From positions 1-64,000 of the forward strand of contig DAHWNL010000082.1 in the NCBI GenBank assembly GCA_027339965.1: 64,000 bases of DNA. Reading direction: 5' to 3'. Under the pieces are notes generated by a model. The model made no database searches. It saw only the letters and a program-made list of their open reading frames with translations, and was not told the origin of the DNA. Positions 2,821 to 44,112 of the stretch are shown piece after piece. Source of the stretch: Granulicella sp. Lineage in GTDB: Bacteria > Acidobacteriota > Terriglobia > Terriglobales > Acidobacteriaceae. The translations under genes were made by a program, and so were the position numbers. Positions within the stretch are counted from its first letter, which is position 1, and every line of letters starts with the position of its first letter.

Positions 2821-2827
2821 AAGCCTC

Positions 2828-3550: not shown

Positions 3551-3559
3551 TGCGCACCG

Positions 3560-4024: not shown

Positions 4025-4038
4025 CGTTTCTTCTCCTC

Positions 4039-10220: not shown

Positions 10221-10223
10221 CGA

Positions 10224-10913: not shown

Positions 10914-11043
10914 ATCTGCTCCTTAAAATCGAAGTGCCCCGCGCCGGGGCGGTTGTCTTCGGCTCCTACTCAGGGGTGCTTGCCGCCCCGGAACGCTACC
11001 AGGTCGGGGGAGTGCTCTCCATGTTCAGGTAGAGATCGATTCT

Positions 11044-16503: not shown

Positions 16504-16509
16504 GGGCTC

Positions 16510-16872: not shown

Positions 16873-16892
16873 GATGTTCTCCTTGAAGTTGG

Positions 16893-17714
16893 TTAGAGAT
16901 CGTCATTCCACTGCGCGAAGTTCCCGACGGCCTGGTGGCCGAACTCACGGCGCAAGCTCTCCTGCCGCTGGGCGGCGCGCACCGTCTGCAGCATCAGATC
17001 GCCGATGCTTCCTCCATCGCCGTCCATGCCCTGACTGGCCAGGGTCGCGGCGGGAAGCTGATCGGGTGAGAAGCGGCGCGCATAGAGCACCAGCATCCGG
17101 TCCACGATGGCGTCCTGCGAGTCCAGCACCGGAACATAGGTCGTGCAGAAGTTCAGGTTGTCCCCCAGGATGGGAGGCAGCGCGATCTTGCAGCGCAGGC
17201 GCAGGTCCACGCTCTCCAGCGCTCCCGGCATCCACAGGGCGTTGCCGCGCCACTCATAGATGCGGTTGACGCCGCTCTGTTGCAGGGGCGGCAGGCCGTC
17301 GGGCGCGGCTTGCAAGGGAAAGAAGTCAGCGCCGGAGCCGTTCACCCGCTCCCATACCCGGTCGACGCCCATGGCTCCTGCGGGCAAGGTCCACTGGGCG
17401 TGGTTCTGGAAGCCGTCGAAGTAGCCCAGAAATCCCAGGCTGACCTGCACAGCCGGGTTGGGCTGCTCCAGCGCAGGCAGCCCCAGCAGGAGGTAGTTGT
17501 CCAGGATGAGCGCCGGGTCTCCGATGCTGCGCAGTTTGCGGTAGACCCAGCGGATGGCGGCGTTGAGGAACGGCAGCGTAAAGGGCGCCGTATTGGTGGC
17601 GATGATGCCGCCCTGCGGGCCATCCATCCCTCCGCCGTCGTCGTTGACCAGCGAGCGGAACAGGTCCATCATCCCTTGCAGATTAGGGTAGCGGATTGGA
17701 TAATTTACGGACAT
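16893..17714 (-). CDS. Head-tail adaptor (P22 gp4/T7 gp11-like)
   Basis: Helical N-terminus with FLNAAIRWVYRKL, beta middle, helical C-terminus; upstream of the nozzle gene. Confidence 0.55.
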   Translation of the reverse strand: MSVNYPIRYPNLQGMMDLFRSLVNDDGGGMDGPQGGIIATNTAPFTLPFLNAAIRWVYRKLRSIGDPALILDNYLLLGLPALEQPNPAVQVSLGFLGYFDGFQNHAQWTLPAGAMGVDRVWERVNGSGADFFPLQAAPDGLPPLQQSGVNRIYEWRGNALWMPGALESVDLRLRCKIALPPILGDNLNFCTTYVPVLDSQDAIVDRMLVLYARRFSPDQLPAATLASQGMDGDGGSIGDLMLQTVRAAQRQESLRREFGHQAVGNFAQWNDDL

Positions 17715-17798
17715 AAGCTCCTGAGATTAGACTTCGCAGGCGGCAGCGGCGGCCTTACGCCGAGACATGGAGCGTGGGAGGGCCGCCGCTGCAGCGCC

Positions 17799-18656
17799 TT
17801 ACGAAGAGCGAGGACGCGCAGAAGAACGCTTGGCCGGGGCATCTTCACTCCACCAGCGCTGCTCCTCCGGCACATCGGACTTGTTTCTGACGCCGGCCAT
17901 GACGGCCTTTTGCCAGTCCAGGATGCAGAGCGTGCCGCCCAGGGCCGTGCTCTTGTGGAAGGCGACGTTTTTCTTGATGGGATCGCCGCAGTTGGGGCAA
18001 TCCACGGTGGGCGCCATCGGTTTGTGGTACTCGCGCTGCTCGCCGAAGTAGTCCAGCGCCATGCGCAGATCCGTACCCTCTTCGCCTTTCAGCATGGCTT
18101 GCAGGCCGGGGCGGTCCGTCACCTCCAGCTCGTCGGCCTGGGCCATCAGGGCGCGGTAGTAGCGCTCACGGCGCAGCTCGGCGCGGCGAATCTCCTCTTC
18201 GCTGGGTGTCTCCTGCAGGCTGATGAACAGGCCCTGCGCGAACAGATCGCTGCCGCGGCTGGTGGAGAAGTAGGCAGCCATCTCGGGCGCGGCGTTCCAG
18301 TCCGGATCGTTGGTGGGATTGTTCGGATTCAGCAGGTCGATGGTGCAGCGCAGCCCGTCGTGCGCCTCGCCGCGGAACTTGCCGGTATCGGTGTTATGCA
18401 CCTTCTGCATCAGCGGATCAGGAATGCGCGTGACCAGAGCGTAGCGCCGGCCTTTGGGGCAGGCGCGCAGACGGAACTTGATCCACAGCGGAGGCCGGTC
18501 GACGATGAACTCGCGCGGCGAGACGGTAAAGATGTAGATGAAGCGCTCGGGTGGCCGCAGCATATTGCGGTCGATGCGTGGATCCCACGAATCCGCGTTC
18601 ATCTTCTGCATCAGAGGCTGAACCTCCGGGTCATCCAAGCCATGTAAGGTTGCCAT
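17799..18656 (-). CDS. Phage hypothetical protein with C-terminal Zn-ribbon
   Basis: CPNCG...H...C motif; AAGGAG RBS. Confidence 0.65.
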   Translation of the reverse strand: MATLHGLDDPEVQPLMQKMNADSWDPRIDRNMLRPPERFIYIFTVSPREFIVDRPPLWIKFRLRACPKGRRYALVTRIPDPLMQKVHNTDTGKFRGEAHDGLRCTIDLLNPNNPTNDPDWNAAPEMAAYFSTSRGSDLFAQGLFISLQETPSEEEIRRAELRRERYYRALMAQADELEVTDRPGLQAMLKGEEGTDLRMALDYFGEQREYHKPMAPTVDCPNCGDPIKKNVAFHKSTALGGTLCILDWQKAVMAGVRNKSDVPEEQRWWSEDAPAKRSSARPRSS

Positions 18657-18681
18657 TCTGTCTCCTTGGGTAGATTGAGGC

Positions 18682-19371
18682 TCAAAAGCCTGCTTCGCTC
18701 AACTGCATCAGGCCGCGGGGCATGCGGGCGGCAATGGCCATGGCCTGGCGCATGCCTCGCTCCATGACCTCCACCTTTTTCGCCAGCACGCTGGTGCGGC
18801 AGCCCTGGTTGGTGTAGCTGGCGGTTGCGCCACGGAAGGCCGGCGCGCAGTCGGCTTTGGCCTCCAGCATCTCGTCCAGCAGCTCATTCTCAGCCAGCTC
18901 GGCTTCCAGCTTGAGAGCTGCGGCTTTTTCTTCCTCGTTGAGCGCCTGCCAGAACTTCACCGCCGGCAGCATCACGTCCACCAGGAAGCTGCTCAGCTCC
19001 AGAATCTCGGCGCGCATCCGGCCGTCGACCGACTCATAGTGAACCAGGCGCTGGAGCACGACATACTGTCCGTGGAAGGGATAGTCGCCCAGCTCCTGCA
19101 GCCCGGTGGCCTCATCGCGGTGCTGATAGTACCAGCGCGTGGGCGAGCCGAAGTCCTGCGCTGGCTTCCACATCATCAGCAGCCAGCAGGGTTCTTTGCC
19201 GCCTACCAGAAAGTCGCGATAACCCAGGAAGCCGTCCCTGGCCCAGTAGCCTCCGGCGCGCGCCGTGGCGCACTCGCTCCAGAGCAGCTTGAAGACCGGC
19301 TCGCCGTATGGGTTGGTTCCACCCTGACGGGTGAAGGCGTCCTGAAACTCAGGGGGGCACTGCCTATGCAC
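18682..19371 (-). CDS. Phage hypothetical protein
   Basis: GTG start at 19371 overlapping the GroES-like gene end; aromatic-rich globular sequence (GGTNPYGEPVFKLLW). Confidence 0.6.
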   Translation of the reverse strand: MHRQCPPEFQDAFTRQGGTNPYGEPVFKLLWSECATARAGGYWARDGFLGYRDFLVGGKEPCWLLMMWKPAQDFGSPTRWYYQHRDEATGLQELGDYPFHGQYVVLQRLVHYESVDGRMRAEILELSSFLVDVMLPAVKFWQALNEEEKAAALKLEAELAENELLDEMLEAKADCAPAFRGATASYTNQGCRTSVLAKKVEVMERGMRQAMAIAARMPRGLMQLSEAGF

Positions 19372-19783
19372 GGTCCGGCTCTCCGCTGGAAGAGGCAGAG
19401 GGTGCGGACTCTTCCGAAGGCAACTTCCCGTGGGTATCGGCCACGCGGATGATGAAGGTGCGCACCTCATCGCGGGTGAAGGCGCGCTCGCCTGCCTGCT
19501 GCGTGCGCAGGTTGATGTACTCGCGCCCATACTCGCTGCAGTGCACCACATCACCTGCCTTGTAGGGCATGGGCATCAGCACGCCGGCCATGGGAACGCC
19601 GTCTCCCACGGCGAGCACGCGGCCGGTCATCGCCTTGGCGGCAAAGCGCTCGCTGCGCTCCAGGGTGAGTCCGCCGGGCGTGACGATGCGGTTGTCGTGC
19701 ACCGGAATCTCTTCGACGAAGATGCGATCCAGCACCGGCTGAAATGGGATAGGCGCTCGTCCATTGATCAAGGGAAGGCTCAT
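19364..19783 (-). CDS. GroES/Cpn10-like co-chaperonin
   Basis: FQPVLDRIFVE, TPGGLTL mobile loop, GRVLAVGDG and YKAGDVVHCSEYG follow the Cpn10 consensus PLxDRVLV..T.GGI...G.VvAVG.G...vKvGD.V...Y.G. Confidence 0.85.
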   Translation of the reverse strand: MSLPLINGRAPIPFQPVLDRIFVEEIPVHDNRIVTPGGLTLERSERFAAKAMTGRVLAVGDGVPMAGVLMPMPYKAGDVVHCSEYGREYINLRTQQAGERAFTRDEVRTFIIRVADTHGKLPSEESAPSASSSGEPDRA

Positions 19784-19954: not shown

Positions 19955-20024
19955 GCCAGATCTGCGGCGCCAGATCTGCGGAACTAGATCTGCGGAACTA
20001 GATCTGAGGCGCTAGATCTGAGGT
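19955..20024. repeat. Five tandem 14-bp repeats including the capsid stop codon
   Basis: GCCAGATCTGCGGC, GCCAGATCTGCGGA, ACTAGATCTGCGGA, ACTAGATCTGAGGC, GCTAGATCTGAGGT. Confidence 0.9.
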
Positions 20025-21352
20025 ACTGGGCAACCCTGAACGTAGAACTGATCCTTGGGATCCGAGCAGACCAACTGCAGGCCGCACTCGTAGCCGAAGG
20101 TGATGGAGTCGTAGTAGGTATACCCGCTGGTCGCCGCCGGAGTGGGAGCGATGGTATTGCCCGGGGTCCACTCATGCAGGCGAGTGTCAAACAGCACGCC
20201 GACGTACCAGTCCTTGGGATTGAAGCGCTGGATCTGGGTGGGATCGGCGGTGCTGGAGTAGACGACGGGACGCCCGAAGAGAGTCTTCTGCATGAACTTC
20301 TTCGAGGTGTCCACCACCGTGTCGCCGTCCTGGTCCAGGCGGGTGATGCCTGGGTTGTAGTAGTTATTGGAGGCGGCGACGCCCTGAGCGAAGTTCGTGT
20401 AGTAGAACTCGTTGGCGTCGTCCGGCTCTTCCTCGCCGTGGCCGTCGCCGCGGGCGCGCGCAATAAGCGCCTCAATGCGCTGCGCCATGGCGCTGGTGAT
20501 GGCTCCGGAGCCGTTCAGGTTGATGGTCGGCGTGGAGAGCCGGCCGGGATAGAGCGCCTTGTTGATGCCGGCGATGGTGCCGGTGGATCCGTTGGCGATC
20601 CAGTACTTGGAGCCGTAGATGGAGCTGCCGGCGGCTCCGGTGGCGCCCATCACCACCAGGATGTTGCCGGTGGCTGTTCCGGCAGGCAACACGGTGGAGA
20701 ACCAGAGCGTCTGCGCCACCGGATCCACATAGCTGATGGTGGCCGTGCCCAGAGCGGTTCCACCCACCGCAGGCAGAATCTGGATCACCTGCTGATCGGT
20801 GAAGCCAGCCACCGTGGTCAGGCCGCTGATGTAGCTGGTCTGCGCGCCGGCGCCGGAGCCGGAGCTGACGGTGGCGGTGGAGGGAATGCTGGCGATGGTG
20901 CCGGAGCCGTCCCCGTTGAACAGGCCCTCGATGCCGTTCTCAAAGGAGCGCAGGCTCTGCTTCATCTCCTCCTTGTTCACCTTCACCAGGCCGCGGTCTT
21001 TGCCGTCAGTGGCCTGCTGGGTCAGGTTGGAGATCTCGCAGGTGTTGATGATGCGCACCGGAGCGGCGACAAAGGCGTCCGTGGTGGAGCCGGTGCCGCG
21101 CGGCCACATGGCGATGCTGCTGGAGGTGTCGGCGGCGAACTGCTGAATGCCGGCCCCGCCCTGGGCGCGGAATGGCACCCGCAGCGGCTGGCGCTGCACG
21201 CCGCCGGCGCTGGTCATATTGCTGATGGGGACCTTCTTGCCGTCCTTCATCAGGCGCTGCTGCAACTTGTTGAAGCGGGCCTGATAGTCGGGAATCTGAT
21301 CCACGAATGCTTCCAGTTCTACCGCCTCATACGCTAACTCTGTAACTGGCAT
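20012..21352 (-). CDS. Major capsid protein (HK97 fold, P22-coat-like)
   Basis: 446 aa after the scaffold; helix ending FENGIEGLFNGDGSG; C-terminal ECGLQLVCSDPKDQ; followed by a terminator. Confidence 0.8.
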   Translation of the reverse strand: MPVTELAYEAVELEAFVDQIPDYQARFNKLQQRLMKDGKKVPISNMTSAGGVQRQPLRVPFRAQGGAGIQQFAADTSSSIAMWPRGTGSTTDAFVAAPVRIINTCEISNLTQQATDGKDRGLVKVNKEEMKQSLRSFENGIEGLFNGDGSGTIASIPSTATVSSGSGAGAQTSYISGLTTVAGFTDQQVIQILPAVGGTALGTATISYVDPVAQTLWFSTVLPAGTATGNILVVMGATGAAGSSIYGSKYWIANGSTGTIAGINKALYPGRLSTPTINLNGSGAITSAMAQRIEALIARARGDGHGEEEPDDANEFYYTNFAQGVAASNNYYNPGITRLDQDGDTVVDTSKKFMQKTLFGRPVVYSSTADPTQIQRFNPKDWYVGVLFDTRLHEWTPGNTIAPTPAATSGYTYYDSITFGYECGLQLVCSDPKDQFYVQGCPVPQI

Positions 21353-23972: not shown

Positions 23973-26648
23973 TCAGCGCAGCCTGCCCGAGCGATTGATC
24001 GCGCTGGTCTTCACCTTCACCGGCGTGCCATTGGGGTCAATCCCGATTTGCTCCACGGTGGTCTCGTGCGGCACCATTTGGGTCTGGGGGATGAAGTCCT
24101 CGGGCTTGGCGGCGACGCCCAGCGCGGTGAGCGCCTCGGCCTGCACGGCGGGCGGCAGCTTGTCCACGGCTACCGTCGCGCTGGCCTTCACCGGCAGAAG
24201 TTGAACGGGCGTCAGCTTCTCGGCCATCTCCTCATGCTGCCGCCAGTGCAGGAGAAGGTTCTGGTAGACGGCCTGCTGCTCGGGAGTTCCGTTCTTGAAC
24301 TTGCGGCCCTCGGGGGAGTTCAGCTTGGCCAGGGTGATGGCCGCCTCAACGGCGTGGTTCTCGCTGCCGTCCTGCGCTACCGGAACGCTGGAGACCAGCG
24401 GCTGCGTGCTCCTGAGTTGTTGCAGCCGGCTCTCCAGTTGCGGCAACTGCTGCTGTAACTGGACCAGCGTCTGTTGGCCCTGCGGCGTCTGCGCCTCGGG
24501 ATGGGTGAGGCCGCGCGCGATCAGTTGCCGGAGCGGAAGGATCTGCTCTTCCAGCTCCGCAATCGCCGGGTTCTCAATGGGCCCGGTGGAGGTGAGCAGC
24601 TCGAACTCGCCCTGCTGCTTCTCCACCGCGCCCAGGCCGGGAAGATGCAGCCCGCTGAGGCTGGGCATCTGGGCGAAGTAAGGAAGGTTCTGCACGTCGT
24701 TGACGATGGAGCGGTAGAGTTCGACGCTACTGCTGGCCTGGATGAGCGCGGCGGTCTGGGCCTCCTGCTCGGCCAGCGTCTGGGGGATCTCCAGGCTCTC
24801 GGCGTAGCAGAGCGCGTCGCCGCGCAGGTTCTCCAGCTCCACCACCAGGCGCTGCTGGCCGGGCGTGCGGCTGCGGATCCGGGTCTTGCGGTTGAGCGCG
24901 GCGGCCTTGGCCGCCTGCGTGGCGGAGCGGGCCAGCCCCTGGCAGATCTGCGACCACGGAGCGGAGAAGACCTGCAGGCTCTGGTCGCGGTTCAGCGCCG
25001 CCTCGCCCACGGTACCGGTCTGGCCCTGGCCGAACATGGCGGGTGTGGCGCCATCCATGGCCTCCGGAGCGCCGTTCACCAGCCACTGCACAAACTCCAT
25101 CAGGCCGGTGGTGGGGGTGGGCACATTCTCAATGCCGGTGATGTCCTGGATGCGCTGACCGGCCTCCAGCATCACCGGCGTCATGCGCGCCGGATCGTTG
25201 GTCTGCTGGTTGATGGCCTCCACGTCAATGGGGCCGCTGGCGGCAAAGCGGCGCGGCACGCAGCCCACAAAGTAGCGCACCAGCAGGCCGATGTTCTGGT
25301 TCAGAATCTTCTGCAGGGGCAGATAGTTGGCTCCGATGGAACGGCGGCTCTGCCCGTCGGAGACCCGTGGATGGCGGATTTCGATGTGATCGTCCAGACA
25401 CTCGTTGCGCACCAGGGCAAGCTGAGAGCCGGCGTGGGTCACGCGCAGCCCATCGGGAAAGTTTTCAAAGAACGCCGCGCGGGTGTGCTTGTCCTGGATG
25501 GCGTGGTACTGGCTGGGTCGGAACCAGGTGTGGGTCTCGGTGGCGTCCTTCATGCAGCTCGCGCCCGTAGCGCTGGAGTTCTGCACGGCCAGGCGGACGT
25601 TGATGCGCGCCATGCGGTCGAAGGAATCGCTGCCGCCGCCGGAGGACTGCCCGGCCTCGATCTTGTCCGCGACCCAGGGGTAGCGCTCGCGCAGGATGTC
25701 CACATCCTGCTCGGTGGAGATGCGCACCCACCCCATCTCATAGATGTCGTCGGCGTAGATGGGAACCTTGCTCTCCAGCACGCCGTAGGCAGAGGTGATC
25801 TCGCAGATGGCCGGCGCGTCGGCGGTCTCTTCCGGCTCGCTTGCGCTTGCAGCGTCCTCGCCGCTGGCAGCTTCTTCGCTCTCCGCAGCGTCTGCGCCGC
25901 CGGTTTGCGAAGCGGGGGCTGCGCCGCCGGCCAGAGCATTCTGCGCAGCGGCGCTAACGGAGGCTTCCAGCTCGGTCTCCGGCGTGACGCCCTCGGCCGG
26001 GCCCGCGCCAAAGACGCGCTCCTGCTCCGGCGTCTCCGTGCCCCAGCGCTGCTGGTCCGCCACCGAGCGGGTCCACAGGACCACGCGGCCGTCGGTGTAG
26101 AAGTAGCGGCAGACGCGGGCCAGCACGCTCTTGATGTCCGAGTCCAACTGCCACACCTTGACGTAGCGGTTGGCCTCCTCGGCGGCGGTCTGGTCCGGTG
26201 GGCTGTCCGGATCCTTGGGCATGAACTTCAGCCCCGGAACCTCGCGCCCCAGCGCCGCGGTGATCTTGTCCTCGCGGGCTCCATAGACGTTCACCGGAAA
26301 GAGCTTCATGGCGTTGCCGGTGGCCATGATGGAGGCGGGAGTGGCCGCGCCGCCGCCGCCGTAGAGCCCCATGCCCCGGGCTCCGTTGGTGAGGAACTGG
26401 TAGCCGCGGGAGAACAGACGCGCCTCCCAGGCCTGCAGCACCTCAAAGATCCGGGCGCTGCTGTCCTGCATGGAGGCCATGCGGGTCAGGTCCTCGACGG
26501 CGCCTTTGTAGCCGCCGAGCTGGTCGGGGCCGAAGATGGGCTCCGGAGAGACATCCACGGCGGCGTAGCGGCCTGGCGCTGGGTTCTGATCCGCAGACAG
26601 CGGTTCAAGTCGCAGGCCCGCGGGCCGTTGTGTGCTGTGTTTGCTCAT
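23973..26648 (-). CDS. Portal protein (P22-like, long)
   Basis: About 890 aa between terminase and scaffold; P..D..AAEEAN..VK, GATPAMFGQ..TVGEAALNRDQS and a coiled-coil C-terminal barrel. Confidence 0.8.
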   Translation of the reverse strand: MSKHSTQRPAGLRLEPLSADQNPAPGRYAAVDVSPEPIFGPDQLGGYKGAVEDLTRMASMQDSSARIFEVLQAWEARLFSRGYQFLTNGARGMGLYGGGGAATPASIMATGNAMKLFPVNVYGAREDKITAALGREVPGLKFMPKDPDSPPDQTAAEEANRYVKVWQLDSDIKSVLARVCRYFYTDGRVVLWTRSVADQQRWGTETPEQERVFGAGPAEGVTPETELEASVSAAAQNALAGGAAPASQTGGADAAESEEAASGEDAASASEPEETADAPAICEITSAYGVLESKVPIYADDIYEMGWVRISTEQDVDILRERYPWVADKIEAGQSSGGGSDSFDRMARINVRLAVQNSSATGASCMKDATETHTWFRPSQYHAIQDKHTRAAFFENFPDGLRVTHAGSQLALVRNECLDDHIEIRHPRVSDGQSRRSIGANYLPLQKILNQNIGLLVRYFVGCVPRRFAASGPIDVEAINQQTNDPARMTPVMLEAGQRIQDITGIENVPTPTTGLMEFVQWLVNGAPEAMDGATPAMFGQGQTGTVGEAALNRDQSLQVFSAPWSQICQGLARSATQAAKAAALNRKTRIRSRTPGQQRLVVELENLRGDALCYAESLEIPQTLAEQEAQTAALIQASSSVELYRSIVNDVQNLPYFAQMPSLSGLHLPGLGAVEKQQGEFELLTSTGPIENPAIAELEEQILPLRQLIARGLTHPEAQTPQGQQTLVQLQQQLPQLESRLQQLRSTQPLVSSVPVAQDGSENHAVEAAITLAKLNSPEGRKFKNGTPEQQAVYQNLLLHWRQHEEMAEKLTPVQLLPVKASATVAVDKLPPAVQAEALTALGVAAKPEDFIPQTQMVPHETTVEQIGIDPNGTPVKVKTSAINRSGRLR

Positions 26649-29548: not shown

Positions 29549-31099
29549 TCAAAGCTCCCAGTACGGTCGAACCGTGTTCTTCCGGCTGCGCCGCTCGGTC
29601 TCGGCCAGGCGGATAAAGTGTCTTTCGCGCTCGGTGGGCGCGGCCTCAATCTGCAGGCGCACCTGATCCTCATGGCGCATCTTCGCCGGCGAGCCCAGGA
29701 TGTGATAGATCCCGTAGCCGGCGCCCTGCAGCGGATCGTCGCCCAGAAAGCCGGCGATCTTCTCCTGGTGCACATCGTCGCGCGGGGCCATCTTGATGCA
29801 CTCGATCAGCCGCGGGCACTCGCTGGAGATGATCCAGTTGGCCCGCTGGATCGGCGCGCCCTCGGCGGTCTTGCCCACCGTCACGCGGCGGCGCAGCATG
29901 TTGTACATGGTCTGCTCGCGCCCCAGCTTATCGCTGCCCGCATTCATGGGCATGGGTAAAGGATACTGGCGCAGGATGCGGCCCATGCGCATGGCCACGC
30001 TGTTGGGGTTGGCCCCATAGCTCTTGGTGGTCTGGTCGGCAAAGGCGTCGTGGGAAAAGGGAAAGCTGACGAAGCTGGGCATCCGGCCGTCCTCGTCCAG
30101 GCTCTCGCGGATGATCATCTCGGCCAGCATCTCCGGGTCGTGATGCTTTACCAGCCGCTCCTTGCAGGTGCGCACCACGCCAAAGTCATCCATGGAGTGC
30201 CAGTAGATGGCCGCCCAGTGCTCAAAGCCCCAGTCGCCGGAGATCCAGCGCCGATGCCAGGGCTGAGCCACGCACTCGCTGGGATCGCAGACGTTCTCGG
30301 CCTCGTCAAAGGCGCCGTAGAAGTAGCCGCCCACCACGTCCCACACGCCGAACTGCATGGCCTCGCGAATGGCCTTGGGGTAGCTCTCCAGGTTGCGCAG
30401 AAAGCTGGGATCGCTGGCGTAGATCGGGTTGTCCAGGTAGGTGCAAGGGAAGTAGGCGTAGTCGGCGGGGTTGTAGGCGCGCCGCTGATCCTCATCCATC
30501 TCATCGCAGGGTTTGTGCTCTACAAACACCTTGCGCACCCAGGGAGCGCCCACGCCGATAGGGTTGCCCGCGCCATCCTTGGTGCAGTACGGATCCACCG
30601 GGCAGCGGTTCCAGGCCGCGGTGGCGTTCCACTGCTCAAAGGTGAACTCGCACAGCTCGTCGTAGAAGATCTTGCGCCACTGCCCCTGATAGCTCCAGGC
30701 ATCGTGCTCATGCTGCATGGAACCGAAGACGGTGGTGGCTCCGTTGAGCCAGGTCACGGTGCGCCGTCCGGAGCCGGACAGGCTCTTGTACAGCTCGCGT
30801 GGCACCAGCTCCTGAAAGCGGGTGAGCAGGGTGCTCTCCAGCATCGGCTGCGTGCGGCGCAGCATCAGCGTGTGGACGTGCGGGGCCACGTCCGGCGAGA
30901 ACTCATTGCAGCTCACCATGTGTTCCACGATGCCGCAGGCGGTCTTGCCCGGCCCCGCCGCTCCGCCCAGAAAGTTGAACGGGGCCACCGAGCCGTGGAA
31001 GAGCCGCTGCTTGGGATAGGGACTGTAACGCTGCTTGAAGTTGATCCTGAGCAACTTCTGATGAAAGTCCTCGGCAAATCGTTCTACGCCGGTCTGCAT
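29549..31099 (-). CDS. Terminase large subunit
   Basis: YPKQ Q-motif, Walker A GGAAGPGKT, Walker B IFYDE, coupling motif AGNP, RNase H-like SGDWG and GDD. Confidence 0.93.
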   Translation of the reverse strand: MQTGVERFAEDFHQKLLRINFKQRYSPYPKQRLFHGSVAPFNFLGGAAGPGKTACGIVEHMVSCNEFSPDVAPHVHTLMLRRTQPMLESTLLTRFQELVPRELYKSLSGSGRRTVTWLNGATTVFGSMQHEHDAWSYQGQWRKIFYDELCEFTFEQWNATAAWNRCPVDPYCTKDGAGNPIGVGAPWVRKVFVEHKPCDEMDEDQRRAYNPADYAYFPCTYLDNPIYASDPSFLRNLESYPKAIREAMQFGVWDVVGGYFYGAFDEAENVCDPSECVAQPWHRRWISGDWGFEHWAAIYWHSMDDFGVVRTCKERLVKHHDPEMLAEMIIRESLDEDGRMPSFVSFPFSHDAFADQTTKSYGANPNSVAMRMGRILRQYPLPMPMNAGSDKLGREQTMYNMLRRRVTVGKTAEGAPIQRANWIISSECPRLIECIKMAPRDDVHQEKIAGFLGDDPLQGAGYGIYHILGSPAKMRHEDQVRLQIEAAPTERERHFIRLAETERRSRKNTVRPYWEL

Positions 31100-31162
31100 T
31101 CGCTCTCCTGCGTCTGTGTTCTCGCGCCGTCCGCGCCGGCTTCGGGCTGGCACCGGGATCGG

Positions 31163-31882
31163 TCAGCCCTGTTGGGGGTCCGACCGGCGTTGCGGGCGCG
31201 GTACATCGTGGATGAGCTGTACGCCCAGCGTTCCAGAGTGCTCCACACGTTCCGTGAACAGGCGAAGATACCGGCCCAGCATCTCCAGGCTTTTGAGTTT
31301 GTCGGCCAGCTTGATCTTCTTCATCTCGCCGCCGTCCTGCATCTGGCGAAGATCCAGTCCGGCGATCGCCGCGGCTTCATCCTCGCCCATCTGGCCGGGC
31401 GGGAGCAGGTTGCCGTTGGCGTCGAAGATCCGGCGAGGATCGAAGAAGGCCAGCTTGGCCATCTCGTCCAGGACGCGCTCGGCGGTGATCTCGCGCCTGG
31501 CCATCTCCTTCTGCGCCTGCTCGGCAACGATGCGGGCCAGCTTCGGGTTGCGGGCGAGGCGTGAGGATTGATGGGCCGCGGTGGACTCGCTGTAGCCGGC
31601 AGCGCGCGCTGCGCGCGAGGCGTTGAATCCGTTGCCGAGATACTCGGCGACAAACAGGCGCTGGCGGAGCGACAGGGAGTCCAGCTCGGCGCGCAGGTCG
31701 TCGGGAAGCTCGACGGCCTGGCTTTGATCTTTACCTGCGGCGAGGCTCTGGTCTGGGCTCGCCGCCGTGCTCTGTTCTCTTCCAGCGGCGAGGCTCTGCT
31801 GTTTGCCTGCGGCGCGGCCCCGGCGGCGCGCAGCCTTCATCGCGGCGTCTTTGGCTGCGTCTTTCCGCGCTTTGGAGTTCAT
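31163..31882 (-). CDS. Terminase small subunit (Terminase_2-like)
   Basis: RQRLFVAEYL..FNASRAARAAGYS...ITAERVLDEMAKLAF...KIKLADKLKSLEMLGRYL.LF. Confidence 0.92.
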   Translation of the reverse strand: MNSKARKDAAKDAAMKAARRRGRAAGKQQSLAAGREQSTAASPDQSLAAGKDQSQAVELPDDLRAELDSLSLRQRLFVAEYLGNGFNASRAARAAGYSESTAAHQSSRLARNPKLARIVAEQAQKEMARREITAERVLDEMAKLAFFDPRRIFDANGNLLPPGQMGEDEAAAIAGLDLRQMQDGGEMKKIKLADKLKSLEMLGRYLRLFTERVEHSGTLGVQLIHDVPRPQRRSDPQQG

Positions 31883-35067: not shown

Positions 35068-36750
35068 TCAGCCTGGCGCGGCGCGCGGCTCGGCTTCCAG
35101 CACAGCGCGGACCCACAGCGGCGCCTCCTGCGCGTAGATAGGCACGCCTCGCTGGCGCATTCGCCGCCAGTAGCCGAGCGCGGCTTGCCGCTGTTCTGCC
35201 TCACGCCGCTCCGTCTCGCTCATCCCTGCCTGGCTCTGCTCGGTTGCTTGCCGCGCGGCTCCGCGCCGGGGGGGCGCGCTGGGCTCGCCGCTTTCCAGCC
35301 GTGCGGTCTCCTGGACGGGGGCTGGGGAATCTGCAGCGCTGCGGCAGGTTTGTACGCTGCGGCAGGCTGCGGCACCGCGCCAGCTCTCCATGTTGCAGCA
35401 GCTTGTTGCGCTGCGCAGGATGCCGGGCTCGCGATAGCGCTCGGCCTGCGCAGCGGCTGCCAGACCCGGAGCGCCGTGGCGGCCCTGCGGCGGCATGACT
35501 TGCGCTCGGCGCGGCCAGGCCTCCGGCTCAGCCCACAGGCCGTCGCCAAAGAACCGGGAGAATCCCCACTGGATCTGCAGCTCCTGACGCCGGCACAGCT
35601 CGCGATACTGTCGCCAACGCTCCACCATGCGCGCGGCCAGGGCCTGCAGCGCGCGCTCTGCGGGCGGCGCAGGGCAGCCCTGTTGCGCGGCGTCCGCACC
35701 TGTCGGCACCCGGGCGGCGCATCGCATCGCCAGCTCGAACTGGCGGTTGAGCAGCGACTCCAGCCGCCGGGTCGCGGAGACGCCACTCTGCTCGAGCACC
35801 CAGCGCGCGGCCCCGACGAACGCAGAGAGCTGGAGCGCCGGCTCCGGCTGGCTGGCGGCCGAGCTCCCAATCCCCGCCGAACCACCCGGCCCCCCTTGGG
35901 GGGTGGGGGGGGTGTGGCTGTCTTCTCTCTCTGGTTCTTTCTTTAAAAGATGGAAGGATATCCCCGGTTGGGACACCAGAGCGCTCTGCTGGGACACCGC
36001 AGCCGCAGGCTGGGACACCGGATCGCTCTGCTGGGATACCAGTGCGTCGAGCTGGGACAAGGACGTCTCGGCGGGCGTCTCGCAGCCAGCCTGGGCGGCA
36101 GCCTTGCAAGCAGCGTCCAGGGCCGGCTCCGATGGGCCTGGGACTGAACCAACCGCAGGAAACAGCGTCGGCGCCAGATCAAGCTGCGCCGGAGCTGGCA
36201 TCGAGCCAACGGATGCGGAGGAGACCTTCGCCTGGATGCTCCTTTGGCTGTGCAGTTCGGCCAGGCGGCGGCGCAGCTCCGGCTCGCCCACCCTCGCCAG
36301 CTCGCGCAACGCCACGAGCTGGTAAGCCGAAGGTCGCCGGCTGGAGCCTTTGCTCTCCAGCACCATCCCCAACTGCACCAGCTCGCGCAGCTTGCGGTGC
36401 GCCGTGGAGCGGGAGACGCAGCTCTCCCGCGCCAGCGCCTCCACGGTCACCGGCAGCTCGGCCCGCGCCGCCGCCAGCGGCGCCAGCCGGGTCATGGCCA
36501 CGTAGACCATCCCGCCCTCCGGGCCGATCAGGGGCAGAAACACCCGGAAGAACTCATGCTCAACGTAACACCAGCCGCCCTGGCTGGTGCTGCGCAGGTC
36601 GGCGTTGCGCACACCCGCGCGAAAACCCGCTCCAAGGCCCGCGCCAGCGTCTCCCCGCGGGCCGCCGCGTCCTCTAGGCGGACGATCGGCCTTGGGGCCG
36701 CCCAGCCCGTAGCCGCCCGGCTCCTGGCCGCTGCTCCAGGCGCTCGTCAT
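35068..36750 (-). CDS. Phage replication initiator (N-terminal wHTH, lambda O/DnaD-like architecture)
   Basis: wHTH TVEALARESCVSRSTAHRKLRELVQLGMV, internal iteron-coded repeats, TPPTPQGG linker, C-terminal WGFSRFFGDGLW. Confidence 0.75.
   Translation of the reverse strand: MTSAWSSGQEPGGYGLGGPKADRPPRGRGGPRGDAGAGLGAGFRAGVRNADLRSTSQGGWCYVEHEFFRVFLPLIGPEGGMVYVAMTRLAPLAAARAELPVTVEALARESCVSRSTAHRKLRELVQLGMVLESKGSSRRPSAYQLVALRELARVGEPELRRRLAELHSQRSIQAKVSSASVGSMPAPAQLDLAPTLFPAVGSVPGPSEPALDAACKAAAQAGCETPAETSLSQLDALVSQQSDPVSQPAAAVSQQSALVSQPGISFHLLKKEPEREDSHTPPTPQGGPGGSAGIGSSAASQPEPALQLSAFVGAARWVLEQSGVSATRRLESLLNRQFELAMRCAARVPTGADAAQQGCPAPPAERALQALAARMVERWRQYRELCRRQELQIQWGFSRFFGDGLWAEPEAWPRRAQVMPPQGRHGAPGLAAAAQAERYREPGILRSATSCCNMESWRGAAACRSVQTCRSAADSPAPVQETARLESGEPSAPPRRGAARQATEQSQAGMSETERREAEQRQAALGYWRRMRQRGVPIYAQEAPLWVRAVLEAEPRAAPG
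35969..36060. repeat. Five iterons at exact 21-bp spacing (putative ori inside the rep gene)
   Basis: TGGGACACC at 35969, 35990 and 36011, TGGGATACC at 36032, TGGGACAA at 36053; AT-rich TTCTTTCTTTAAAAGA next to them. Confidence 0.8.
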
Positions 36751-36854
36751 GCCACCACCACCGCCAGCAGCGCCGCCGACAAAGCCAGCAGCCACCAAAG
36801 GGACCGCCTCAGTTCCTCACTCACACTACGCTCCTAAACCTGATATGCAATTGA

Positions 36855-36883
36855 ATAGTCGTACGTATTAGACAATTTGTCAA
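36855..36883 (-). promoter_or_regulatory. Putative early promoter for rep
   Basis: TTGACA-17 bp-GACTAT in an AT-rich patch; the -10 is weak. Confidence 0.5.
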
Positions 36884-37144: not shown

Positions 37145-37262
37145 ACAAGCAGCTTTCGTGTTGCCGGGCATCCCGAACAGGGCTTGCAGCGGCGTTTTCC
37201 TGGGGGGAGAAACGCCTATCGAAGTTCAGGTACCCTCTCCATCGGCACGGAAGGTGCTTTTA
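37145..37262. repeat. ~117-bp MITE-like palindromic element, copy A
   Basis: Clearly homologous to 45787-45902; ends on the TAA stop of the repressor gene. Confidence 0.75.
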
Positions 37263-37898
37263 GCGTCTGCGGTACTGCCGGTGCTCCACCATCACTCCGG
37301 CGATGCGCAGCGCCAGCCGGTCGGACCGCAGCGGAGCGTGCAGCGCATTGAGGGGGACCAGTTCGAAGACGTCGATGCCGTTCTCATTGATGCCGGCGCT
37401 GCGATACTGGCGGAAGCTCGCCTCTCCGCTCGGTTCCGTAGCCACCACAAAGTCCCCTGGCGAGGGTTGAAGGGTGGGGTCGATCACCACCATATCTCCG
37501 GGCTGGAACCTGGGCTCCATCGAATCGCCCTTGATACGCATCGCAAATGTGCTCGGCGGATGCTCTAGATCGGTCACAATGCTCTCCCGTGGCTCCTCAT
37601 CTTTTGGGCGGTCTGCGGAGGCGGTCCATCGGCCGATCTGTTCGTAGTCGAGCACCGGTATCCTTCGCCATCCCAGAGGAACTTCCTCGACGTTACTCCG
37701 GCTGCCGGATGCATACAAAACATCGACGGAGACTCCCAGCGCCCCGGCGATCTTCAGCAGGGTCTCGCGGCTGTAATAGGCGCCCCGCTCCACCCGGGAG
37801 AGAAAGGGCCCCGAGATCCCCGCCAGCGTGGCCAGCTTCGTCACCGTCCATCCCAGACGCTCTCTGCGCTTCCTGATCTCCGAACCGATGTCTGCCAT
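37260..37898 (-). CDS. CI/LexA-like repressor (XRE HTH + S24 domain), autocleavage residues substituted
   Basis: HTH IRKRRERLGWTVTKLATLAGISGPFLSRVERG; GDSMEP Ser retained; EQIG in place of VQAG; ASFRQY in place of ATFKKY. Confidence 0.9.
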   Translation of the reverse strand: MADIGSEIRKRRERLGWTVTKLATLAGISGPFLSRVERGAYYSRETLLKIAGALGVSVDVLYASGSRSNVEEVPLGWRRIPVLDYEQIGRWTASADRPKDEEPRESIVTDLEHPPSTFAMRIKGDSMEPRFQPGDMVVIDPTLQPSPGDFVVATEPSGEASFRQYRSAGINENGIDVFELVPLNALHAPLRSDRLALRIAGVMVEHRQYRRR

Positions 37899-38048
37899 GC
37901 ATTGATTGTGAGTGCATAGTCTTACCTGATATTACTTATTACGTATTATTTTTGCCATACGCAATGTGCCGTACCGGATCGGGACCAAGATTGGGAATCG
38001 TGCCGATCTCCGCTCGCGTGGCGAGCCCGAGGAGGGAGTTCCTCGAAT

Positions 38049-38103: not shown

Positions 38104-38766
38104 TCAGCGCCCGGGGCTGGGGCGCTCCAGGCCGCGGATATGGCGCTGCAACAGCTCAGCGGCCCGCGCCGGGTCGCCCGCCTGTAGCGCCGCGACAATC
38201 TGGCGGTGCGCCTGGTTGGAGGTGGGCTTCCAGGCCGTGGCGCGCAGCACCGAGAAGATTACCCGGGAGCCGGCCCGTTGCAGCTCGTCCAGCATCTCCA
38301 GCAGCCGCGGCATCTGGCAGGGCGCGGCCAGCTCGCGGTGAAAGTTCCGGTTGGCCTGTTCCCACTCCTCCAGCGTCTGGGCCTGCTCGCAGGCCAGCAT
38401 GGCCCGCTCGATCCGTTCCACGCAGCCGGAGGTCAGCTTGGCCGCCGCGTGGGTCAGCGCCAGCGTCTCCAGCGCGGCGCGAATCTCCACAATCTCCTGC
38501 ATCGCCGCCCGGTCCAAGGGCGCTACCCGCACCCCGCGGCGCGGCTCGCTCACCGCCAGCCACTGCGAACGCAGGAGTTGAAACGCCTCTCGCACCGGGA
38601 CGTGGCTGGAGCCGAACTCCTGTGCGATCCGGTCCTGGCGCAGCGCAGCTCCCGGGGGAAGCTCGCCGATGACGATGCGCTCGGCCAGCGCCAGCGCGAT
38701 GCGTTCCGCTACGGTCTCCGCCATGGGGGTCGTCTTCTCATCACCTTCCCGCCGTCTCTTCATCAT
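38104..38766 (-). CDS. bioR: GntR/FCD-family regulator, BioR-like
   Basis: GntR wHTH (LRQDRIAQEFGSSHVPVREAF) plus FCD domain; divergent from the bio operon, with BioR-box-like sites between them. Confidence 0.75.
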   Translation of the reverse strand: MMKRRREGDEKTTPMAETVAERIALALAERIVIGELPPGAALRQDRIAQEFGSSHVPVREAFQLLRSQWLAVSEPRRGVRVAPLDRAAMQEIVEIRAALETLALTHAAAKLTSGCVERIERAMLACEQAQTLEEWEQANRNFHRELAAPCQMPRLLEMLDELQRAGSRVIFSVLRATAWKPTSNQAHRQIVAALQAGDPARAAELLQRHIRGLERPSPGR

Positions 38767-38812
38767 CCTCCCGTTGTGGTCTTCACCATCTTCGCGCCGT
38801 GTTCTCTCATTT

Positions 38813-38900
38813 TTGTAGATTATCTATGAGCTGACTGTCACCGTCACCTGCGCTGCTATACTTGGGCTGCAAATCGGCAGGAGCAATCTATTATCTATGG
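38813..38900. promoter_or_regulatory. BioR-box-like operators
   Basis: TTGTAGATTA (38813), TTATCTATGA (38820) and TTATCTATGG (38891) versus the BioR consensus TTATMKATAA. Confidence 0.6.
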
Positions 38901-38956
38901 ATTGTTCCGCGTCCGGTGGATCGGAGTCCAGCGTGCCCCTGAACGATGAACTTGTC

Positions 38957-39952
38957 ATGCCCTCGGCGAACCCCAGCCCGCCGCCCCAGCCCTCCCCGGA
39001 GACCGGCCGCTGGAGCCGGGCCGAAGCGCTGGCGCTCTACGCTCTACCGTTCCATGATCTGCTCTTCCGCGCGCACACCGTCCATCGCGAAAACTTTCAT
39101 CCCAATCAGATTCAGCTCAGCCAGTTGCTCAGCATCAAGACCGGGGGATGCTCGGAGGACTGCGGCTACTGCAGCCAGTCCGCGCGCAGCGCCACGGGCG
39201 TGAACGCCACTCAACTGATGGATGTGGATCGGGTGCTGCGGGAGGCGCGGGCGGCCAAGGCCGGCGGCGCTACCCGCTACTGCATGGGCGCTGCGTGGCG
39301 CAGCCCCAGGCCGGCCGACATGCCGGCTGTCCAGGCCATGGTGCGCGGGGTGAAGGCTCTGGGGCTGGAGACCTGCATGACGCTGGGCATGCTCTCCAGC
39401 GAGCAGGCCGAATCCCTCGCCGAGGCTGGCCTGGATTTCTACAACCATAACATCGACACCTCCGAACGCTTCTATCCGCAGATCATCACCACCCGCAGGT
39501 TTCAGGACCGGCTGGAGACGCTCGAGCATGTGCGCCGGGCGGGCATCAAGGTCTGCGCGGGCGGAATTCTGGGGATGGGCGAGACCGCCGAGGATCGCAT
39601 CGAGATGCTGCTCACGCTGGCCAACCTGCCCGCCCCGCCGGAGAGCGTGCCCATCAACATGCTGATTCCCATTCCAGGCTCCAAGCTGGCCGGGGCCGCG
39701 CCGGTGGACCCGCTGGAGTTTGTCCGCGTCATCGCGCTGGCCCGCATCCTGATGCCGCAGTCCCATATACGGCTCTCCGCGGGGCGGAAGGAGATGAGCG
39801 ACGAGCTGCACGCGCTGTGCTTCTTTGCCGGAGCGAACTCGATCTTTGTGGGCGAAACGCTGCTCACGGCCGCCAATCCGGGGGTGGACCGGGATACGCA
39901 GCTTCTGGCCCGGCTGGGAATCACGCCGGAGCCGGCCTCCGGAGAAGCGTGA
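38957..39952 (+). CDS. bioB: Biotin synthase
   Basis: [10 protein letters not shown] radical-SAM motif, [22 protein letters not shown]. Confidence 0.97.
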
Positions 39953-41172
39953 TGCGGCCCGGGTCAGCGCAGTCTGGGCCGGCGCCGCTCGGGAATGAAT
40001 CAGCGCCGTCTGAGACGGAATCAGCCCGGCCCTGGGCCGGGTCAGCCCCCTATCGGGCTGCGCTCACCCAGCTCGACCGCAAAGCGCGGCTGCGCCGCCT
40101 GGCGCGGCCCGGCGGCTACGACTTCACCTCCAACGACTATCTGGCGCTGGCCGGCTCCGCAGCGATGCGCGCGGGCGTTCTGGCCGCGCTGGAGCGGGGC
40201 GTTCCGGTGGGCGCGGGCGGCTCGCGCCTGCTGCGCGGCAACCACGCCGAGCATGAGGCGCTGGAGCAGGAGGCGGCCGCTTTCTTTCACTCGCCGCGGA
40301 TGTTGTATTTTGGCAGCGGCTACATGGCCAACCTGGCGATCCTGGCCACGCTGCCGCAGCGCGGCGATCTGGTGGCGCACGATGAGCTGATCCACGCCAG
40401 CGCCCATGCCGGCATGGGCGCGGGGCGTGCTGAGACGGTCAGCGTGGCCCACAACGACGCCAATGCCTTTGAAGATGCGCTGCGCCGCTGGCGCGCGGCC
40501 GGGGGCCGAGGGCGTCCGTGGATCGCCGTGGAGAGCCTTTACTCCATGGACGGCGACCGGGCTCCGCTGGCTGAGCTGGCCAAGCTGGCCGAGCGCTATG
40601 ACGGCTTTTTGCTGGTGGATGAGGCGCACGCCACCGGAGTGCATGGGCCGCGGGGCCGCGGGCTGGCTGCCGGGCTGGAGGGCCGGGAGAACGTGGTGGC
40701 GCTGCACACCTGCGGCAAGGCGCTGGGTGCGGAAGGCGCGCTGGTGGGGGCAAGCGCGGTGCTCTGCGAGTATCTGGTGAATCACGCGCGGCCATTCATG
40801 TACTCCACTGCGCCCTCGCCGCTGGCTGCGGCCGCGGTGCGGCAGGCGCTGAAGATTCTGGCCGAGGAGCCGGAGCGGCGGCTAAGGCTGCACGAGCTGA
40901 TCGACGCGGCCAACCGGAGGCGTCAAGCCGGCCTGGGCGCCCCGGGCAGCGGCACGCAGATTCTGCCGGTCATCCTGGGTGAGAACGCCCGCGCGCTGCG
41001 CCTGGCCGCGCGCATGCAGGCCGAGGGGTTTGACCTTCGCGCCATCCGCCCGCCGACCGTCCCGGCCGGCACGGCGCGGCTGCGCATCGCCATCACGCTG
41101 AACGTGGACGCTGCCGTGGTCGAGCGCATGTTCGCGCATCTGGCGGCGGCGATAGCTGAGGAGGACGCATGA
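39952..41172 (+). CDS. bioF: 8-amino-7-oxononanoate synthase
   Basis: [45 protein letters not shown]. Confidence 0.95.
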
Positions 41173-41825
41173 GCCTGCGAGTGGTGGTGACCGGAACCGA
41201 TACGGGGATTGGGAAGACGGCGTTCTCCGCAGCCTTGACCGATGCGCTGGACGGCTGTTACTGGAAGCCGGTGCAGTCCGGGCTGGAGGAAGAGACGGAC
41301 AGCGAGACGGTGCATCGGCTGGGGCGGATCCCCCGCGAGCGGATCTTTGCCGAGGCGTGGCGGCTGCGGACGCCGGCGTCTCCGCATCTCTCGGCGGAGC
41401 TGGACGGCGTGGCGATTCAGCCCGCGGCGCTGCAACCGCCCGCATGCAGCCGGCCGCTGGTCATCGAGGGCGCGGGCGGTCTGCTGGTTCCGCTTACCCG
41501 CGGGGAGACCTTTGCCGACGTCTTTGCCCGCTGGCGGATTCCCACCATTCTGTGCGCCCGGACCGAGCTGGGCACCATCAACCACACGCTGCTGTCGCTG
41601 GAGGCGATGCGGCGGCGGCGGATTCCGGTGCTGGGCCTGGCCTTCATCGGCGAGCAGCGCAGCGATACGCAGCGCACCCTTGCGGAGATGGGCGAGGTGC
41701 GCGTGCTGGGCCGACTGCCCTGGCTGAAGCCTTTGACCCCGGAGAGCCTGCGCGCGGCTGTGCGGGAGAACTTTGATCTCTCGCCGGTCTTCGCTCTGGC
41801 GCGAGTTGAGGAGAGACCGGCATGA
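41169..41825 (+). CDS. bioD: Dethiobiotin synthetase
   Basis: [32 protein letters not shown]. Confidence 0.96.
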
Positions 41826-43120
41826 ACGACGCGAAGGCTAGCTCGCCGGTGTGGCATCCCTTTACCCAGCACGCGCTGGACCCGGTGACCACCCGGGTGG
41901 TCAGCACCGAGGGGGCGTATCTCATCGACGAGCACGGCCGCCGGATTCTGGATGCCATCTCGTCCTGGTGGGTGATTACGCATGGGCATCGCCATCCGGC
42001 GATCATGGAGGCTATTCAGAGGGCGGCGGAGAGCCTGGATCAGGTGATCTTTGCAGAGTACACCCACCAGCCGGCCGAGGATCTGGCCCGCGGACTGATC
42101 CGCCTGGCGCCGCCCGGGTTGACGCGCGTCTTCTACTCCGATAGCGGCTCGACCAGCGTCGAGGCGGCGCTGAAGATGGCGCTTGGCTTCTTCTACAACA
42201 GCGGCGTTCCGCGCTCGCGCATTGTGGTGATGGAGCACAGCTATCACGGCGATACGATTGGGGCCATGTCCATTGGCGAGCGCGGGGTCTTCAATGCGCC
42301 TTACCAGCCGCTCCTGTTTGATGTGGACGCCATCCCTTTCCCCGAACCGGGGCGCGAACAGGAGACGCTGGATGCCTTGGAGCGTCTCTGCCGCGGCGGG
42401 CAGGTGGCGGCGCTCATCGTCGAGCCGCTGCTGCTGGGCGCGGGCGGCATGAAGATGTATCCGCCGCGGATGCTGGCCGAGCTCCAGCGAATCGCGCAGC
42501 GGCATCAGACGCTGTTTATCGCCGATGAGGTGATGACCGGCTGGGGCCGGACCGGCACGCTGTTCGCCTGCGAGCAGGCCGGCGTGGCTCCGGATATCCT
42601 TTGCACCTCCAAGGGCATCACCGGCGGAGCTGTGCCGCTGGCGGCCACGCTGTGCAGGGAGGAGATCTTCGCCGCGCACCTCTCCCGCGACCGCCGGCGC
42701 ACCTTCTTTCACTCCAGCTCCTACACGGCGAACCCGATTGCCTGCGCGGCGGGGTTGGCCAACCTCGAGGTATGGAGTTCGGAGCCGGTGGCCGAGCGCA
42801 TCGCCGGGCTGGAGCGGATGCACCGCGAGCGGCTGGCGCGCTTCCGCCAGGATGCGCGCTTCCGCAACGTCCGGCAGTGCGGGACCATCGTGGCCTTGGA
42901 TCTTGACGTGCCGGCCACGGGCTATCTCGCGGAGGTGGGGCTGGAGTTGAAGCGCTTCTTCCGCGGGCGGGATCTGTTGATCCGTCCGCTGGGCAACGTG
43001 ATCTACCTGATGACGCCGTACTGCGTGACCGCGGACGAGCTTGACCAGGCCTATGCGGCCATCGACGAGGCGGCTGACCTGCTGCGTCAGGCTGGGCCGT
43101 TTAAGGCTGGGCGACGATGA
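41822..43120 (+). CDS. bioA: DAPA aminotransferase
   Basis: [45 protein letters not shown]. Confidence 0.96.
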
Positions 43121-44112
43121 GAGCGCCGGCGAGCCGGCTGGCGGGCCTGGGCCACGCCGTTCCACAGCGGCGCGTGGAGAACGCCGAGATCGAGCAGCGG
43201 CTGGGTCTGGAGCCCGGCTGGATCGAGCGCCGCACAGGCATCCGCGCGCGGCGCTGGGCGGAGCCGGCGCAGACGCTGACCGAGCTGGCCGGGCAGGCCG
43301 CCGCCATGGCGCTGGAGAGCGCCGGCGTGGTGCGCGCGGAGGTAGGGCTGACGCTGTTGGCCACCTCGACGCCAGACCATCTGCTGCCGCCCTCGGCGCC
43401 GTTGCTTACGCATCGGTTGCGTCTGTCCAACTCCGGAGCGATCGACCTCACCGGCGCGTGCGCGGGTTTTCTCTATGCCTTGACGCTGGCCGATGGGTTT
43501 GTGAGAACCCAGGGCAAAGCTGTGCTGATCGTGGCCGCGAATCTGCTCAGCCGGCGCATCAACCCCGCGGAGACGGCCAGCTCGATCCTGTTTGCCGACG
43601 CGGCTGGGGCCGTGCTGCTGGCTCCGTCACGCTCGCCGGCGTCGGGCGTTCGAAGCGTCGATCTGGCCTCCGATGGCAGCCAGTACGATCTGATCTCGAT
43701 TCCCGCCGGGGGAAGCCAACGGCCGTTCGTGGCCGGCATGGACCCCAGTGAGCTGCGGATGACCATGAGCCACGGCAGAGCGCTCTTCGCGCAGGCCGTG
43801 CGCATGATGACCGAGTGCTCGGCGCGTGCGCTGCGCCAGGCCGGCCTGAGGGCGGAGGAGATCGATCGGTTTGTCCCCCACCAGGCCAACCTCCGCATTC
43901 TGGACGCGGTCTGCGCGAACCTGGGCATCTCCAACCACAAGATGGTGCAAACTCTGCACGAGTTTGGCAATTCCTCGGCCGCCACTATCCCATTGTCCTT
44001 GTCTCTCTCGCATCAGGAGCGGCCTTTGGCCCCCGGGGAGCGGCTGTTGCTCACCGCGGCTGGCGCAGGGCTGTTGGGCGGCAGTGTGGTCTGGGCCGTG
44101 GGCCAGGACTGA
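43117..44112 (+). CDS. bioZ: FabH-like 3-ketoacyl-ACP synthase III, BioZ
   Basis: GACAGF, HQAN and GNSSAA catalytic triad; last gene of bioBFDA, coupled by ATGA. Confidence 0.8.

Follow-up and report, generated by a model that had tools for sequence, protein, structure and literature searches.

The window analysed here, a stretch of 64,000 nucleotides, carries a cI-type repressor gene at one end of a 36-kb phage cluster that lacks an integrase and has diverged in step with its hosts. The repressor is predicted not to cleave itself and, on balance, probably silences the particle and lysis genes of the cluster until some other trigger acts. The best reading of the sequences is a prophage domesticated in one clade, with a repressor that is likely locked. 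The preliminary description of this DNA, which dealt with the repressor, missed the vertically inherited, selected phage cluster around it.

The repressor is predicted not to cleave itself

Like the S24 proteins of the lambda cI/LexA type (lambda cI, VP882 cI), the repressor combines an HTH with an S24 fold and has the Ser nucleophile. In contrast to them, it has Arg in place of Lys and Ile-Gly in place of Ala-Gly, and is accompanied by neither cro nor an integrase arm. The predicted structure (pLDDT 86.7) has lambda repressor (PDB 3bdn) as its top Foldseek match. The dN/dS ratio is 0.06 for the HTH, 0.10 for the S24 core, and 0.41 for the linker and cleavage-site region, the last value being suggestive only, since linkers are often variable. 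These ratios point to purifying selection on the HTH and the S24 core, in agreement with the conserved HTH and fold of the preliminary description, and suggest relaxation of the linker and cleavage-site region. The repressor still looks functional.

The three residue assignments made in that description are borne out. Ser126 is retained here and in all 81 members of the family sample described below, and both Ser126 and Glu159 are kept in the orthologues. Arg163 aligns with the first Lys of the UmuD motif TVKK (chain B of PDB 8gmt has Ala at that column), with the TLK lysine of host LexA proteins, and with the TFK lysine in the cI of the closest intact phage relative, IMGVR_UViG_3300036795_000443, which has QAG at the cleavage-site column occupied here by Ile88-Gly89. 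A misaligned Lys column is ruled out by these LexA, UmuD, and intact-phage alignments. Arg occupies the column in six of six orthologues (codons CGC, CGG, or CGA), and the cleavage site is VS or VG in the four orthologues that have Val at position 88. The earlier statement that each change needs more than one nucleotide is true of the codons now in place but not in general: a single step can turn Lys into Arg (AAG to AGG), and Val in four of six orthologues makes the path from Ala through Val to Ile stepwise. Multi-nucleotide change is thereby ruled out as a sign of selection.

Cleavage of S24 proteins requires a Ser-Lys dyad and an Ala-Gly site (PMC3121763; PMC3091678), and the VP882 cI mutants K172A, S130A, and G92D show no cleavage (10.1101/2019.12.16.877910). 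The repressor has neither the catalytic Lys nor Ala-Gly, and is therefore predicted not to self-cleave. Because the case is built on these published requirements and the VP882 mutants, we infer the loss strongly but do not present it as a measurement: self-cleavage is very likely lost, and RecA-stimulated cleavage is in all probability absent. The protein is a predicted non-cleavable variant of the cI kind, and is not to be classed as a self-cleaving S24 member.

Loss of the catalytic lysine recurs in the repressor family

The family sample comprises the query and its 80 closest clusters (50–98% identity, n = 81). The Lys column holds K in 49 members, R in 22, A in 6, S in 2, T in 1, and L in 1, so that the Lys is missing in 32 of 81 and Arg is its commonest replacement (22 of 32). 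Both Lys and AG are present in 41 members and neither in 18, while 14 have AG without Lys and 8 have Lys without AG. On a quick tree of 88 full-length rows, from which five short proteins and the seven most distant matches were omitted and in which the trait column was kept, the Lys/AG label requires 14 changes, at least eight of them forced by well-supported branches. The nearest relatives of the repressor on this tree have AA with Arg or Lys. Both Lys and AG are kept in 63 of 66 distinct IMG/VR relatives, most of which are more distant. A metagenome scan returned distant relatives only, with identity of at most 49%.

Genomic context is available for few family members. The repressors of relatives sit divergently from cro. 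Cro adjoins the repressors with Lys and AG of L031, L039, L122, G104, and G097, three of which also have an integrase, and it accompanies the degenerate repressors of the complete genomes G015, G018, and G116 as well. No integrase is seen in the stretch fetched around the G015 and G018 loci. In G116, an integrase and a degenerate repressor belong to one prophage inserted beside recA (L286-L287, G116:C1:1619364-1627969). Because the Lys has been lost at least eight times, including in this integrase-bearing prophage, the change is recurrent, is not rare in this family, and is not bound to integrase-less elements. The supposed tie between IG/R and such elements, therefore, describes the element of the window, which is integrase-less, but does not extend to the G116 prophage. 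Similarly, the proposal that selection kept DNA binding and removed induction agrees in its first half with the purifying selection on the HTH and S24 core, but positive selection for the loss is unsupported. At least eight losses in one acidobacterial family suggest that many such prophages are not induced by direct repressor cleavage, a point of consequence for surveys of lysogeny by mitomycin C.

The element keeps its virion genes and lacks an integrase arm

The repressor gene lies at the end of a 36-kb set of phage genes (terminase, capsid, tail, lysin) on the same strand, which reaches leftward to about 2.2 kb (Table 1). The head, tail, packaging, and lysis genes are intact. A single-sequence fold of the capsid protein has a pLDDT of 31.6.

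Table 1 Features of the element and of its surroundings in the window.
Feature	Position	Strand	Basis or remark
Lysis module and left end	2200..5266	-	Endolysin 4242-4703, phrog_7
Fibre gene	6206-9730	-	Diverges much faster than the rest
Putative neck, tail, and fibre genes after the GroES-like gene	within 6206..19783	-	Synteny with the intact phage, conservation
GroES-like gene	19364-19783	-	Immediately follows the capsid gene; the intact phage has it too
Major capsid protein	20012..21352	-	28 of 62 aligned homologues match phrog_14242 major head protein; PDB 7f38, E 9e-5
Portal-like protein (putative)	23973..26600	-	Position and size only; conserved, no family match
Terminase large subunit	29549..31100	-	Family matches
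Terminase small subunit	31163..31882	-	PF03592, phrog_51
Non-coding block, 110 nt	34493-34602	-	82-85% conserved across relatives, about 160 nt beyond the second promoter
Second promoter-like site, TTGACG-17-TAGGAT	34788-34760	-	Conserved, ahead of late genes; no operator-like site
TTTTCCACA	34797-34805	-	Just upstream of the -35 of the second promoter; invariant in five genomes
HTH protein at replication-initiator position	35068..36750	-	Domain match, synteny; N-terminal part conserved, rest fast-evolving
Hydrophobic 25-aa peptide ORF	36747..36824	-	First in the repressed early operon; start conserved in six-genome alignment
Promoter-like TTGACA-17-GACTAT ahead of early operon (putative)	36855..36883	-	Six-genome alignment; operator-like 36867-36876 in spacer
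cI-like repressor, 212 aa, predicted non-cleavable	37260..37898	-	ORF and domain matches (HTH_3, Peptidase_S24), orthologues
Arg163 in catalytic Lys column	37410..37412	-	Codon CGC
Ser126 nucleophile, kept	37521..37523	-	Codon TCG
Ile88-Gly89 in place of Ala-Gly cleavage site	37632..37637	-	ATC 37635-37637, GGC 37632-37634
Two overlapping ATTA-NN-TAAT-like palindromes upstream of cI, candidate operators	37931..37947	.	
Right boundary	37977..37999	.	Conserved, imperfect direct repeat; relatives are homologous up to 37999
Host flank, outside element: GntR regulator and biotin genes	38104..44112	.	

The arm with cro, xis, and int is absent: the cI start is separated from the boundary by no more than about 100 bp, and relatives have cro at this place. 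None of the ten PF00589 integrase matches in the genome is on the contig of the window (C12), and no resolvase is found in the whole genome. Four relatives match the window up to exactly position 37999 and continue with a SurA-like gene (three) or a transposase (one). No att-type repeat was found as an end-to-end match or among the 20 largest repeat families listed, although very short cores could escape. The junction between cI and the biotin genes is not an assembly join, because contigs from sequencing runs X1 and X4 (two independent studies) bridge it with equal depth inside and outside the element. No DNA match to the GntR, bioB, bioF, bioD, bioA, and fabH-like genes is found in G007, G009, or G019, and we take the block to be a recent arrival beside the element. 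REP-like repeats with many genomic copies occur at 37147-37246 (inside the element), 38028-38086, 45681-45905, and 1-150.

The closest intact relative named above (L039, L469) is a 39-kb contig of an uncultured temperate phage. Its cI, capsid protein, and large terminase subunit are 62%, 79%, and 77% identical to those of the element, its gene order is the same, and its virion module is 44–79% identical. It keeps an integrase, cro, an initiator, and about ten small early genes, and its cI has both AG and Lys. The contig shows the ancestral plan; by comparison, the leftward arm and the majority of the early genes are missing from the element of the window.

Candidate operators, promoters, and LexA boxes

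A TTGACA-17-GA(C/T)TAT-like promoter downstream of cI is conserved among relatives, and the intact phage has the same promoter layout there. A sigma-70 consensus scanner called no promoter at 36600-38150. ATTA-NN-TAAT-like palindromes occur in two regions, upstream of cI and at the 36.86-kb promoter, and those chosen on the former rank 1–6 of 1024 on the latter; none of 100 shuffles ranks as well, with the proviso that shuffles ignore relatedness. Across the window, the operator motif has 5 matches against 1.95 expected (6 of 100 shuffles), a borderline excess for a motif picked after looking. Three of the five matches fall in these two regions, and the intact phage has a repeated motif of its own at the same two places. 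The repressor quite likely binds sites of the ATTA-NN-TAAT type, both at its own promoter and at the one at 36.86 kb.

The motif TTTTCCACA upstream of the second promoter resembles a DnaA box. The 110-nt block beyond that promoter has no Rfam match, and no compensatory pair is seen among its 28 predicted pairs in four sequences; it is possibly a structured leader.

A LexA-box matrix was built from 17 sites upstream of lexA and recA, which score 23–31 bits; the host LexA-box-like motif is TTCGC-N6-TTYGC. The best site in the element scores 14.8 bits and is not conserved in relatives, and the element has no exact match to the LexA box GTTC-N7-GTTC. Besides those of recA and lexA, strong LexA-box-like sites occur at G000:C27:57951 (27.6 bits) and C63:23885 (25.1 bits).

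The element has co-diverged with its hosts

The repressor is present in 6 of 101 genus genomes at 85–100% identity (85–99% in the five related genomes). The carriers all fall in one gyrB clade of seven genomes (SH-aLRT 100), in a tree of 19 of the 96 gyrB-positive genomes, chosen among the closest; G054 enters only the 101-genome denominators and the gyrB and recA match counts. The seventh clade genome, G051 (84% complete), shows the lysis end only, in two copies, one of them degraded. Concatenated element genes and host genes give the same unrooted five-genome topology. Over 15 genome pairs, which are not independent, the dS of 28 element genes correlates with that of seven host genes (Pearson r = 0.96), and dN/dS is 0.09–0.17 for the element and 0.08–0.20 for the host, both about 0.1. 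The 28-gene pool omits the fibre gene (saturated), the HTH protein (poorly aligned), and orf32593 (apparently misframed). The capsid protein is 96–99% identical among relatives at dS 0.24–0.68, and constraint on the head, tail, terminase, and lysin genes matches that on host genes up to a dS of 0.95. Stops occur in only two of 31 element ORF alignments, in the GroES-like gene of G019 and in orf32593 of G009. The element has thus been inherited vertically and has co-diverged with its hosts under purifying selection, with one discordant pair of 15. In that pair, G007–G009, the dS is 0.14 for the element and 0.34 for the host, which implies at least one move or recombination event of the element.

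The left flank region is common to G007, G009, and G051, and G051 joins it to the sulfatase that flanks the element here. The right flanks differ among genomes, with REP-like repeats or transposases there. The late genes of G009 contain an ABC-transporter cluster and another insertion; the former, a 7.5-kb HlyD/ABC transporter cluster (L022:4068-11579, G009:C30), lies on the opposite strand just after terL. The fibre gene has a dS of 1.02 against G050, where the host dS is 0.12, which suggests fibre swaps.

Proposed course of domestication

GTAs are defined by immobilised virion genes, purifying selection, and vertical inheritance (PMC8987985). As far as its genes tell, the element has all three, in common with RcGTA, CcGTA, and BaGTA. 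In contrast to the known GTAs, it occurs in one small clade and retains, within a single block, a cI of its own together with an initiator-like gene and lysis genes. PBSX is a comparable domesticated defective prophage.

We propose that the prophage was immobilised once, in the ancestor of the clade, and kept for its particles. With the integrase arm lost, induction by DNA damage would kill the cell and yield no excised phage. Because induction without excision would only kill the cell, repressor cleavage would no longer have been maintained, and the switch would have decayed while DNA binding was kept. The repressor would keep the particle and lysis genes off, and a trigger other than cleavage would release them in a few cells, through an antirepressor or through the separate 34.78-kb promoter. 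Our leading guess, offered tentatively, is that the particles would be packaged from the chromosome in place and carry host DNA, in the manner of a GTA; they may have roles in killing or delivery.

If this is true, the element is a GTA caught mid-domestication, with a near-intact free phage relative for comparison. The path from prophage to host tool is an open question, because known GTAs are old and their regulatory rewiring has been erased. Here the steps would still be readable beside an intact phage of 62–79% identity: the integrase/cro arm lost, the early genes trimmed, the cleavage switch disabled, and the virion genes selected. A literature search, with most subscription papers outside its scope, returned no paper on this element or its domestication, on a GTA of Acidobacteriaceae, or on S24 phage repressors with Lys changed to Arg; the prophage list behind PMC5900883 might include related elements.

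Alternative explanations

A non-cleavable repressor is not the same as an SOS-proof one. According to PMC3121763, the Gifsy repressors GfoR and GftR likewise repress without self-cleavage, and Gifsy prophages are induced by LexA-controlled antirepressors that act across prophages. The view that the repressor is SOS-uninducible thus stands for self-cleavage but not for antirepressors acting in trans, and the claim that any induction must use another signal was overstated. If the element were SOS-inducible by way of a LexA-controlled antirepressor or protease whose gene lies elsewhere in the genome, which we regard as quite unlikely, the trigger alone would differ from our proposal. In line with such a trigger, the uncleaved VP882 mutants are still sequestered by Qtip (10.1101/2019.12.16.877910), and host lexA and recA are intact. 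However, the best LexA-box-like site of the element is unconserved and falls below the range of the training sites, and no ANT-family antirepressor match is found in G000, although small antirepressors would escape such searches. In addition, the Gifsy repressors have only 136 aa and come with LexA-controlled antirepressors as partners, whereas here the S24 domain is full and no LexA box is found in the element. The non-cleaving LexA of Synechocystis PCC6803 differs again, being a host regulator that has lost Ser and Ala (PMC3091678). It is very improbable that Arg163 acts as a weak general base and the repressor cleaves slowly. The predominance of Arg among the replacements, its retention in all orthologues along with Ser126 and Glu159, and the 14 of 81 relatives with Ala-Gly but no Lys would suit such a base, but the cleavage site has drifted to IG, VS, or VG, Ala, Ser, Thr, or Leu takes the place of Lys in other lineages, and LexA with Lys156 changed to Arg is said to be non-inducible.

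The element might instead be still mobile, as a helper-dependent or recombination-spread prophage that moves among close relatives by an integrase in trans and whose cI is non-cleavable as in many free relatives. Such mobility, which we consider unlikely, would account for the G007–G009 discordance, and also for the retained initiator-like HTH gene and the differing right flanks, both of which weigh against domestication; the ten integrase matches elsewhere in the genome and the integrase-bearing G116 prophage with its dead repressor fit it too. However, the other 14 pairs show element dS following host dS, the trees agree, there is no cro or xis and no match between the element ends, the left flank is shared, the depth is flat in runs X1 and X4, and the REP-like repeats or transposases lie at the very flanks that differ. 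No likelier is a locked cryptic prophage that serves superinfection immunity and lysis-gene silencing, never makes particles, and decays slowly. The low dN/dS of the HTH agrees with this, as do the possible loss in G051, where the lysis end only is seen, and the insertions in G009, which likewise weigh against domestication; a review states that cryptic prophages keep beneficial genes under purifying selection (PMC13492144). Nevertheless, the head, tail, terminase, and lysin genes, constrained like host genes, are of the kind that the same text names as usually lost. We therefore prefer domestication of a prophage in a single clade, its repressor likely being locked.

A family-wide particle cluster in the same genus

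Another integrase-less, conserved cluster of phage particle genes occurs in the same genus. This family-wide, GTA-like cluster (L390-L391, G049:C5:3685-27141; L409, L411) has its capsid in 69 of 101 genus genomes, mostly at 83–100% identity, and in none of the seven clade genomes. Other genomes also lack this capsid and do not carry the element, so its loss needs no replacement. The site of the cluster, between the genes greA-ruvX-mltG and sucB-lipB-lpd, retains in G000 only the two central genes, for a HipA-like kinase and a DUF3037 protein (G000:C52:949-2702). A divergent fragment of such a cluster is present in G007, on a single 3.6-kb contig.

Four genes of the family-wide cluster are homologous to genes of the element, whereas its terminase, portal, and capsid have no tblastn match to those of the element. 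The fibre gene counterpart is 36–65% identical. In a tree of orf3560 without outgroup, the five element copies form one group among the host-cluster copies. Capture of orf32833 from the family-wide cluster was considered and dropped, because additional copies of it are found close to cI in G116 and G018. Possibly, the element of the clade replaced the older particle system. The full account, in which the clade dropped an ancient GTA-like cluster for a newly tamed, unrelated temperate phage with its cro-xis-int arm lost, an uncleavable repressor, particles of host DNA, and non-SOS control, is doubtful. The apparent swap of clusters suggests a function that persists although its components can be exchanged.

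No LexA-box-like site of at least 14 bits lies ahead of the first gene of the family-wide cluster in G049, and sites of 27.2 and 18.2 bits lie upstream of it in G015 and G018, respectively, hinting that the cluster is under SOS control in some species. A divergent paralogue of the HipA-like kinase is present on contig C70 of G000.
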